Assembly (NCBI GenBank): GCA_016288795.1
Contig: JAEELI010000005.1
Location: forward strand, 268-64,267
From: Bacillales bacterium
Lineage (GTDB): Bacteria; Bacillota_I; Bacilli_A; RF39; UBA660
DNA: 64,000 bases
Direction of reading: 5' to 3'
How positions within the stretch are numbered: the first letter of the stretch is position 1; every line of letters begins with the position of its first letter. The position numbers and the translations under genes were made by a program. This document shows positions 30,093 through 31,172 of this stretch, piece after piece. The notes below the pieces were generated by a model. The model ran no database searches, was not told the origin of the DNA, and was given only the letters and a program-made list of their open reading frames with translations.

Positions 30093-31172
30093 TTATTGAC
30101 AGTCCGCGTATGATTCGTCAATCCATTCATCGTAATAGAAAGCTCCACCACTATAGACAGAACAAGCAGCAGCAATCTCATTATACCCATCATATTCTTG
30201 ACAATATGCACTCGTTCCTTCTAGATAACAATATACTTGAGCATAGTTATCATGGCACGACATTCTCGTGCTTCCTTCGGCGCCACAAATATAGCCTAGA
30301 GCTGAATATGTATCATTATAGTATTCAATGTAATTAGAATCGGGTTCAAAGCACATTTCTTTTTGGTCTAACATTGCACATGCTGCATATGTTCCAGTTG
30401 TTGTATTTTGTCTCAAATAAACGCGATAGCCAGCATTAAGTATTGATGTATTGTTTGGGTATTGAGTATTACTTACGAGTTCATTTAAATACACCATCGT
30501 TCCACTATTATTTGGTATTCCTCCTGGTGGATATGCTTTAGTTGCAGTGCAACTAAATGAAGTCGCAGAAAACGTTAATGTTATATCTTTATTCTTTAAA
30601 GCATCTTGATTGACTCCATTTTTATTTACAAATTTAAATTGTGCTGTTATTTGTCCAGGATTTCCACTTGATATCCCTGTAAACGTCCCATTAATTGTTA
30701 TTTTGTTATTTGTGAATAAATTTGCTGTATAAAAATCATATGTTGTTTCCCCTACAGTTAAAACTATTATTCCTGATGTTTTTCCACCCCATCCTTGAAA
30801 TGCTGTATATAAATCATTCGTCGCGCTTTTGATGATTTGTATTGTATAATCACAATTAAAATTTCCTGCTCCACTTACTGTTGCAGTTGCCATTACTGGA
30901 TTATTCTCAGTTGTGGTAGTTCCGGTTGATGAAGCATAATATGTAACATCGCTTCCCTTTTGCATCATTTGATTGGCAGTTAAATTTAATGTTAAAGCTG
31001 AACCACTTGATAAAGATACTGATCCAACTGATGCAGCTGATGCGCTTATTGTTTTTGATCCAAAACTATTTGTTGATGACACACTAAAATAAGCATAAGT
31101 TGCTCCAACTATCAAAGTAAGAAGAGTTGCTACTCCAATTATTAGTGATATCAATACTTTTTTATTCTTCAT
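30093..31172 (-). CDS. secreted protein with a SipW-cognate (TasA/camelysin-class) signal peptide and a cysteine-rich C-terminal domain (paralog 1)
   Basis: N-terminal MKNKKVLISLIIGVATLLTLIVGATYAYFSVSSTNSFGSKTISASA matches the ...GGT(F/Y)A(F/Y)F(S/T)D... signal class of TasA/CalY. The C-terminal roughly 100 aa contain about 10 Cys and many Tyr. It is paralogous to 39655-40698. Confidence 0.6.
   Translation of the reverse strand: MKNKKVLISLIIGVATLLTLIVGATYAYFSVSSTNSFGSKTISASAASVGSVSLSSGSALTLNLTANQMMQKGSDVTYYASSTGTTTTENNPVMATATVSGAGNFNCDYTIQIIKSATNDLYTAFQGWGGKTSGIIVLTVGETTYDFYTANLFTNNKITINGTFTGISSGNPGQITAQFKFVNKNGVNQDALKNKDITLTFSATSFSCTATKAYPPGGIPNNSGTMVYLNELVSNTQYPNNTSILNAGYRVYLRQNTTTGTYAACAMLDQKEMCFEPDSNYIEYYNDTYSALGYICGAEGSTRMSCHDNYAQVYCYLEGTSAYCQEYDGYNEIAAACSVYSGGAFYYDEWIDESYADCQ

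Follow-up and report, generated by a model that had tools for sequence, protein, structure and literature searches.

Are two paralogous, cysteine-rich proteins of an uncultured gut bacterium subunits of a surface fibre, membrane-tethered adhesins or simply secreted proteins? The question is raised by a 64,000-nucleotide (nt) stretch of a Bacillales genome (assembly GCA_016288795.1, contig JAEELI010000005.1, positions 268 to 64,267 of the forward strand; this whole stretch is the window below), which carries gene 1 (30093..31172) and gene 2 (39655..40698). An earlier note, made from the sequence of the window, had described their products as secreted proteins with a signal peptide of the type cleaved by SipW in TasA, followed by a novel cysteine-rich domain. 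Donor-strand fibres of the TasA type have been described in Bacillus, in Clostridium perfringens and in a small number of archaea, and mostly have single-domain subunits encoded beside sipW. We put a probability of roughly 0.5 on the reading that genes 1 and 2 encode accessory, module-bearing subunits of a TasA-like donor-strand fibre that are cleaved by an endoplasmic reticulum (ER)-type signal peptidase in uncultured gut Bacilli.

Two paralogous genes and their leader

The open reading frames (ORFs) at 30093-31172 and 39655-40698 were both confirmed on the minus strand in the ORF list. Gene 1 runs from an ATG at 31172 to a stop codon at 30093-30095 and encodes a 359-amino-acid (aa) precursor with a leader, a TasA-like N-terminal domain (N-domain) and a tail containing eight cysteines (8-Cys). 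Gene 2 encodes a 347-aa paralog whose most likely start is the GTG at 40698, since this codon lies 8 nt past a GGAGG and the longer ORF from 40713 would begin within that ribosome-binding site. A database protein (P0023) has the same length as the gene 2 protein and is identical to it over the C-terminal 139 aa. The full-length gene 1 protein is not on record; the visible first 45 residues of a 93-aa fragment (P0188) correspond to its residues 267-311, which suggests that a further public data set also contains the gene 1 sequence.

The two proteins share 37% identity over their full length (BLASTP, E = 1e-59); homology had been claimed for about 210 residues and is clear there, but it extends through the tails. 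Identity is unevenly distributed, with 59% in residues 1-27, 95% (18/19) in residues 28-46, which sit just past the predicted cleavage site, 46% in residues 47-208 and 23% in the tail (209 to end). Near-identity, which the earlier note had extended to the first ~45 residues, therefore holds for residues 28-46 and not for residues 1-27. Third-codon positions agree in 11/18 (61%) of the identical residues of this stretch and are thus not conserved, which argues for selection on the peptide. On the same count, recent gene conversion was rejected as the source of the identical N-terminal stretch.

In gene 1 the leader (residues 1-27; 31092..31172, minus strand) consists of MKNKK, a hydrophobic core and VGATYA, with the cut predicted after the invariant A27; in gene 2 (residues 1-28; 40615..40698, minus strand) it consists of MDNKKK, a hydrophobic core and IGASYA. 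Both have the layout of two lysines, a hydrophobic core and then VGATYA↓YF (gene 1) or IGASYA↓YF (gene 2), where the arrow marks the predicted cut. G23, A27 and F29 do not vary across 85 leaders of the family, and conservation is 90% or higher at A24, T25, Y26 and Y28. Among window ORFs the G-A-T/S-Y-A-Y-F motif is confined to genes 1 and 2, and in a literature search the GATYAYF motif appeared in no paper. The cleavage-site layout of the TIGR04088 (SipW-cognate) class, G-x-T-aromatic-Ala↓x-Phe, is present (GAT-Y-A↓Y-F vs. GGT-W-A↓A-F in TasA), with a small residue, aromatic P2, Ala P1 and Phe P2' common to the window leaders and TasA. TIGR04088 is also the most recurrent NCBIfam match in the family (11/48 members, best E = 1.7e-4; 10/85, best E = 1.4e-5). 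Owing to its aromatic P2 and P2' residues, TasA is a poor substrate for LepB; it is cut by the ER-type SipW (PMC10269814). Assignment of the leader to the TasA/camelysin, SipW-cognate class, as the earlier note had it, is supported by this layout and by family-level matches to TIGR04088 and Peptidase_M73, but the two window proteins themselves fall below the curated cut-offs.

The window proteins contain no LPXTG-type sorting signal ([LN]PxT[GNAS]; their C-termini are ..ESYADCQ and ..TLCQDPS), no lipobox cysteine (the first Cys is at residue 107 or 110) and no Pfam N_methyl match to a class III signal (G↓F-T-L-x-E).

A TasA-like N-terminal domain

The leader is followed in gene 1 by residues 28-46 (YFSVSSTNSFGSKTISASA; 31035..31091, minus strand), the predicted mature N-terminus, and by residues 47-208 (30549..31034, minus strand), the predicted beta-sandwich core of the N-domain, which ends at the invariant C208. 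The corresponding parts of gene 2 are residues 29-47 (YFSVTSTNSFGSKTISASA; 40558..40614, minus strand) and the core at residues 48-208 (40075..40557, minus strand). An invariant pair of cysteines lies within the domain (C107 and its partner C208 in gene 1; C110 and C208 in gene 2).

Peptidase_M73 (PF12389), the Pfam family that includes TasA and CalY, is the most recurrent Pfam match in the family (20/48 members, best E = 3.7e-6), and the matches reach well beyond the leader. A stand-alone relative that is 50% identical to gene 1 over the N-domain (P0040) passes the Peptidase_M73 threshold with 27.3 bits in two stretches, the better of which lies in the C-terminal strands (residues 145-195 vs. 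profile positions 139-189), and in another relative (P0036) residues 11-196 align to positions 9-186 of the 196 in the profile. Checking against the TIGR04088 and Peptidase_M73 models, as the earlier note had proposed, therefore places the window proteins below threshold, while both models recur across the family and P0040 passes the Peptidase_M73 one. We also compared the family with a TasA profile built from a 109-sequence alignment (search seeded with Bacillus subtilis TasA). With the leader included, hhalign yields E = 1.5e-4 and a probability of 51% over the signal and the first ~25 mature residues, and a relaxed alignment is co-linear over 231 columns. Because the Peptidase_M73 and TasA matches are co-linear beyond the leader, the whole ~210-aa N-domain, rather than the leader alone, appears to be a divergent TasA/BsaA-like domain. 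The contrast with TasA drawn in the earlier note was too strong in this respect, as the co-linear matches leave the tail alone as new.

Likeness to TasA/CalY comprises a positively charged N-terminus, a hydrophobic core and a G-x-T-aromatic-A↓x-F leader, alignment of the first ~20 mature residues (N.F..GT/KT.. motif), alignment of the C-terminal strands (v.Q..L.G..I.l.F in the window family vs. vQNKyQG..i.l.F in TasA), and an all-beta domain of ~180-230 aa. Differences are also substantial: identity is ~18% at best, with the window proteins below threshold; the window family has an invariant Cys pair in the domain and an extra C-terminal module; its genes are monocistronic in the window, with no tapA-sipW operon; and the host belongs to uncultured low-GC gut Bacilli, not to Bacillus. 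Judged by sequence, leader and N-domain are of a kind already known, as divergent members or variants of TasA/BsaA.

Residues 28-46 of gene 1 align to residues 28-47 of TasA, which include its donor strand, with F29 and F37 opposite TasA F29 and F39 (hhalign). In TasA fibres the donor strand is formed by residues 28-38, with F29, I32 and F39 buried inside the subunits that follow (PMC9674648). This alignment, together with the 95% identity of the stretch between the paralogs, makes residues 28-46 of gene 1 and residues 29-47 of gene 2 candidate donor strands. An AlphaFold2 (AF2) model of the N-domain is an all-beta sandwich with a predicted local distance difference test score (pLDDT) >90 for residues ~60-210 and low confidence for residues 21-50. 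A Foldseek search of this model against the PDB returned nothing below E = 1e-3, and the family profile matched no PDB sequence at E ≤ 10. The modelled fold is compatible with a TasA-like subunit.

The one argument for a camelysin-like metalloprotease, or for a spore-coat or spore-surface component, lies in names, namely Peptidase_M73, as the closest Pfam model is called, and spore coat-associated protein N, as TasA used to be called. The window proteins lack an HExxH motif and have only 1-2 histidines each, no sporulation gene occurs among the 30 window ORFs scanned, and TasA is now understood as a fibre subunit (PMC9674648). We regard such functions as highly improbable, and nothing points to the spore-surface location that the earlier note had entertained.

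Modular architecture of the family

A search of 5.8 billion proteins recovered only 51 relatives, none with an informative name, and a scan of one genome per species recovered 118. In the family alignment the conserved unit runs from the N-terminus for ~210 residues, as far as the invariant C208. About half of the 51 relatives consist of this unit alone (about 202-223 aa) and end 3-5 residues past C208, typically in T-A-T-A; others continue into Flg_new, DUF285, BspA-type leucine-rich repeat (LRR_5) or unknown domains, and only about ten carry the Cys-rich tail. Most relatives in the scanned genomes match over the first ~65-100 residues only, and a hidden Markov model of the N-domain aligns over its full length in 26/88 proteins and partially in 17 more. 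On these alignments, the general architecture is a leader, then the N-domain, then a variable C-terminal part. Nearly all of the retained loci (76/78) are in metagenome-assembled genomes (MAGs) that carry the label uncultured Bacilli, Bacillales or Tenericutes and come from the gut of rabbits, Hadza and other sources, and single MAGs have ten or more family genes encoding proteins of 200-1070 aa.

Stand-alone N-domains occur as tandem pairs at four loci (L002 9986-11490, L081 10001-11580, L082 10001-11302 and L080 43-1359, the last on a 1.5-kb contig). In L002, L081 and L082 the gene order is conserved: a glycosyltransferase (GT2)/tetratricopeptide repeat gene, the tandem pair, a convergent gene for a ~550-aa protein with a C-terminal sortase domain (TLSTC), a gene for a ~180-aa protein with an NPQTG sorting signal, and lysS. 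As these three genomes are related to one another, common descent rather than function may account for the synteny. In L002, the gene two places upstream of the pair (7915-8724) encodes a collagen-like protein with G-x-T/G-P-T triplets (GPTGPTGATGPQG...) and a Cys-rich N-terminus.

Within 6 kb of 88 family genes, two kinds of partner recur and no others: generic ATP-binding cassette (ABC) ATPases, at 11 loci, and a site-2/M50-like membrane protease, at 6 (L050 8116-8868 and five more). The protease is polytopic, measures ~250 aa and has an HELGH motif. No other protease-like neighbour was seen near family genes, and the recurrence of this one probably reflects shared synteny among related MAGs.

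An eight-cysteine C-terminal module

The tail comprises a linker and the 8-Cys module in both proteins (gene 1, residues 209-359, 30096..30548, with the core from about residue 246 at 30096-30437; gene 2, residues 209-347, 39658..40074; both on the minus strand). Each window protein has 10 cysteines, 2 in the N-domain and 8 in the tail; the earlier description of a ~100-aa domain with about ten cysteines is therefore revised to a region of 139-151 aa with eight. The abundance of tyrosines is borne out (14% and 11% of the two tails), as is the novelty of the domain, with no match to the tail in Pfam, NCBIfam or the PDB. The gene 1 and gene 2 tails share homology, none of the eight cysteines varies among ten tails, and a C-x8-C spacing recurs along the tail.

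The module is rare: a tail profile searched against 1.84 billion representatives matches 67 clusters at E ≤ 1e-3 and 13 at E ≤ 1e-10, with the match at the extreme C-terminus in nearly all 67 clusters. The carriers have at least five kinds of N-terminus: the GATYAYF leader, a type IV pilin-like leader (K-G↓FTLIELLAVIVIL), a '..TVAFAAL.T.L.I.GTAN' leader, an '..ALD.LY' motif, and plain membrane anchors. All five of the pilin-like carriers tested (5/5) pass Pfam N_methyl. These Firmicutes type IV pilin-like proteins have the same module at the extreme C-terminus (profile E = 1e-7 to 1e-4) but, unlike the window proteins, a class III prepilin-peptidase signal (K-G↓FTLIE).

Several other carriers form recognizable groups. 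In five proteins (P0195, P0197, P0201, P0211, P0221) the leader '..NILLG.L.VG.ISMTVAFAAL.T.L.I.GTAN.....WNI.F' precedes unrelated ectodomains that end in the 8-Cys module; this leader class has no Pfam match and may be a further dedicated sorting or assembly signal in gut Firmicutes. Another group (P0198, P0200, P0208, P0215, P0224, P0226-P0229, P0238, P0244) consists of 170-270-aa proteins with a membrane anchor, the motif '..V.Y.N......ALD.LY' and a variant of the module (GVCI.RNG..HCF...W..E..HIQ.VFSDI.C), and P0198 carries two module copies in tandem.

The earlier note had also called for structure prediction of this region, which gave a confident model. A shallow alignment had left the tail at pLDDT 30-60; with a 52-sequence alignment, AF2 reaches a mean pLDDT of 80.6 and a predicted template modelling score of 0.76, with pLDDT >90 for residues 40-130 (tail numbering here and below). 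The modelled layout begins with three strands and a single helix (71-83), after which beta-hairpins follow one another. Successive cysteines lie on neighbouring strands of the modelled hairpins (C57/C66, C88/C98, C107/C116, C129/C150), from which we infer four hairpin-stapling disulfides. Extracellular disulfides are unusual for strict anaerobes, and the invariant cysteines suggest that they form here. The module is a candidate new domain family.

Donor-strand fibre subunits or tethered proteins?

If the window proteins are fibre subunits, they would be exported through Sec and cleaved behind A27 in gene 1 and A28 in gene 2; the enzyme would be an ER/archaeal-type signal peptidase with its gene in another part of the genome, and the mature gene 1 protein would begin YFSVSSTNSFGSK. 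The first ~19 mature residues (YFSV.STNSFGSKTISASA) of the ~180-aa beta-sandwich domain would then serve as the donor strand inserting into the sheet of the neighbouring subunit. Stand-alone N-domains would form the bulk of the fibre as its major subunits, and the window proteins, having the same donor strand, would be accessory subunits displaying the four-hairpin, disulfide-stapled module on the outside of the fibre, possibly in an adhesive or stabilizing role. The accessory assignment draws on relatives that have tandem stand-alone pairs, or that have other modules (LRR/BspA, DUF285, Flg_new) in the place of the Cys module; a role at the filament surface or tip is suggested by the presence of the module on type IV pilin-like proteins.

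There are precedents for parts of this scheme. BsaA and BsaB of C. perfringens (TIGR04090; encoded by sipW-bsaA-bsaB-bsaC) have a SipW-class leader and remote TasA homology, belong to an anaerobic gut Firmicute and are functionally linked to type IV pilus components. Donor-strand exchange from an N-terminal disordered segment has been proposed for BsaA, whose polymers would assemble at the membrane ahead of cleavage by SipW (PMC11580942). The window proteins differ in scoring only 12.4 bits against TIGR04090 (cut-off, 60) and in not being encoded in a sipW operon, and BsaA lacks a Cys-rich tail. Archaeal TasA-like filaments (AbpA pili, 7UEG; DUF1102 tubes, 9BAC; CanX cannulae, 9H8B) likewise have beta-rich subunits with an N-terminal donor strand, and their processing falls to the generic ER-type signal peptidase, no dedicated one being encoded close by (PMC9245690). 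By analogy, a generic ER-type peptidase without a dedicated nearby gene may also act here.

Several observations weigh against fibre formation by this route. The curated models are not reached by the window proteins: for TIGR04088 (cut-off, 19 bits) the gene 2 protein scores 10.5 bits (E = 0.54) and the gene 1 protein has no match at E ≤ 10, while for Peptidase_M73 (gathering score, 22.5) the two proteins score 17.5 and 13.0 bits, in the leader region only. The comparison of mature parts with TasA is weak (hhalign, E = 0.018, probability 2.6%), pairing ItAqlk.vNk..dQ..L.GkdItlTF with V.i.I.F...vQNKyQGdsi.l.F of TasA. No signal peptidase I of either type was found in 1.08 Mb of window and related loci, and there is no adjacent tapA-like or sipW partner, the genes being monocistronic among housekeeping genes. 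Finally, Lys-rich extensions of some relatives fit a retained membrane anchor better than a cleaved signal.

The peptidase search had three parts. No signal peptidase I was found with Pfam in 30 window ORFs (of the 54 that reach 120 aa), with an S-M-x-P box regular expression in all ORFs of at least 60 aa from the window and 79 related loci (1.08 Mb), or with phmmer in the window or related loci; the phmmer query, a SipW sequence, is valid in that it matches Peptidase_S26 at 35.4 bits. The earlier note was thus right that the window has no sipW, and there is no operon here like tapA-sipW-tasA. About one signal peptidase I gene is expected per ~1.5-Mb genome, so its absence from these loci says little.

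The extensions bear on a different reading of the leader. The stretch V6-F29 is hydrophobic and long enough to span the membrane, and if it were an uncleaved signal-anchor, the products would be monomeric type II membrane-tethered surface proteins (adhesins), with GATYAYF used for membrane-interface packing or some other recognition. In P0034, P0038, P0048 and L002 10738-11490, Lys/Asn/Thr-rich extensions of 30-70 aa precede the hydrophobic leader segment; they are unlikely to be mis-called starts, since they stay in frame at such length in AT-rich DNA, and they hint at a cytoplasmic tail. Anchoring would also suit the many paralogs per genome with diverse large ectodomains and the lack of a dedicated peptidase or chaperone gene nearby. 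Against it, A27 at -1, Thr at -3 and Phe at +2 are strict across 85 divergent proteins, as a peptidase site predicts; the best database relatives, TasA and BsaA, are cleaved; and anchoring leaves the 95% identity of residues 28-46 unexplained. We consider an uncleaved anchor possible but on balance unlikely.

Cleavage of a different sort was also weighed, namely that these are ordinary soluble secreted proteins cut by the general P-type (LepB/SipS-like) peptidase, form no fibre and resemble SipW substrates in composition only. The sub-threshold scores for TIGR04088 and PF12389, the absence of sipW from the window and related loci, and the A-x-A-like small residues at -1 and -3 would agree with this. 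Yet LepB-type enzymes disfavour aromatic P2 and P2' residues (PMC10269814), family matches reach the C-terminal strands of the TasA profile, and conservation of the motif far exceeds that of ordinary signal c-regions, all of which make general secretion quite improbable.

Accessory membership of a donor-strand fibre remains our preferred reading. A more speculative extension of it, to which we give little credence as yet, is that GATYAYF leader and donor strand together form a general plug-in. At least 10 paralogs per genome, with ectodomains as varied as 8-Cys, BspA-LRR, DUF285, Flg_new and large unknown domains, would then all be processed by an ER-type signal peptidase and would be threaded into, or would nucleate, a common TasA-like fibre, giving combinatorial, chaperone-free display of adhesins, and the 8-Cys module would be a disulfide-stapled tip or adhesion domain shared with type IV pili.

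Transcription signals and genomic neighbourhood

Genes 1 and 2 each have a promoter-like site that is the best of its region, an 11/12 match to a sigma-70-like consensus on the minus strand. That of gene 1 (31202..31230) reads TTGACC-17-TATAAT and is followed by a ribosome-binding site, GGAGA, at 31181-31177; that of gene 2 (40748..40777) reads TTGACC-18-TATAAT with an upstream TG and is followed by the GGAGG at 40711-40707, both ribosome-binding sites being on the minus strand. Between gene 1 and the convergent def lies a hairpin with a 10-bp stem and a T-run (30034..30058), scored on both strands in the scan, which could act as a terminator in both directions; a terminator-like hairpin with a T-run is also found downstream of gene 2 (39625..39641, minus strand). 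With a promoter-like match upstream and a hairpin downstream of each, the two genes fit single-gene transcription units, in agreement with the earlier note. Their placement beside unrelated core genes is likewise corroborated, the neighbours being def, smc, rnc, topA (34920-36935), mutS and two fused ABC-ATPase/FtsX genes. The window has a G+C content of 27%, with nearly all genes on one strand and no tRNA genes or Rfam matches. It encodes ftsQ, murB and a LysM protein, from which we infer that the organism has a cell wall.

Immediately upstream of gene 2 are the two ABC/FtsX genes (40828-43254 and 43257-45443, minus strand), adjacent fusions of an ABC ATPase and an FtsX-type permease (MacB-like). 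A very similar pair, probably orthologous (phmmer E = 0 and 4e-263), is found at L019 3849-8494, directly downstream of another GATYAYF-family gene, and at L025 7278-9857 a related fused ABC/FtsX gene immediately precedes a family gene. This proximity may reflect a functional link (export or assembly) or coincidence.

Two further ORFs of the window were noted. A 264-aa ORF directly upstream of def (28680-29474, plus strand) has a charged, coiled-coil-looking C-terminal part, no Pfam match and no relative in ~80 fetched loci. A gene at 61590-63950 (minus strand), whose frame is open to at least 63998 and so almost to the end of the window, encodes a Ser/Thr-rich protein of 786 aa or more. The protein has internal repeats (e.g., 'PTITASD..SG.WHTA..TLT.SGST' twice), a Cys/Tyr-rich C-terminal ~80 aa and no Pfam match, and its gene has a G+C of 0.37 vs. 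the window average of 0.27. The earlier note had proposed comparing its C-terminus with the 8-Cys tails; the two were found to be unrelated, and homology was rejected (hhalign, E = 0.32).

Significance

What is new at this locus is the lineage (uncultured small-genome gut Bacilli), a TasA-like domain fused to interchangeable C-terminal modules, the scattered single-gene organization without sipW or tapA, and the eight-cysteine domain itself. The family indicates that TasA-like proteins have undergone a sizeable and unannotated radiation in uncultured gut Bacilli with small genomes, sampled in metagenomes of the human, rabbit and other guts, and the occurrence of one module on both type IV pilin-like and TasA-like proteins suggests that it functions at the surface or tip of filaments. 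If the reading is correct, the invariant G...A.F leader would provide a handle for recognizing the surface proteome of these Bacilli. If the proteins do polymerize, they would represent a new route by which poorly known gut commensals build adhesive surface filaments.

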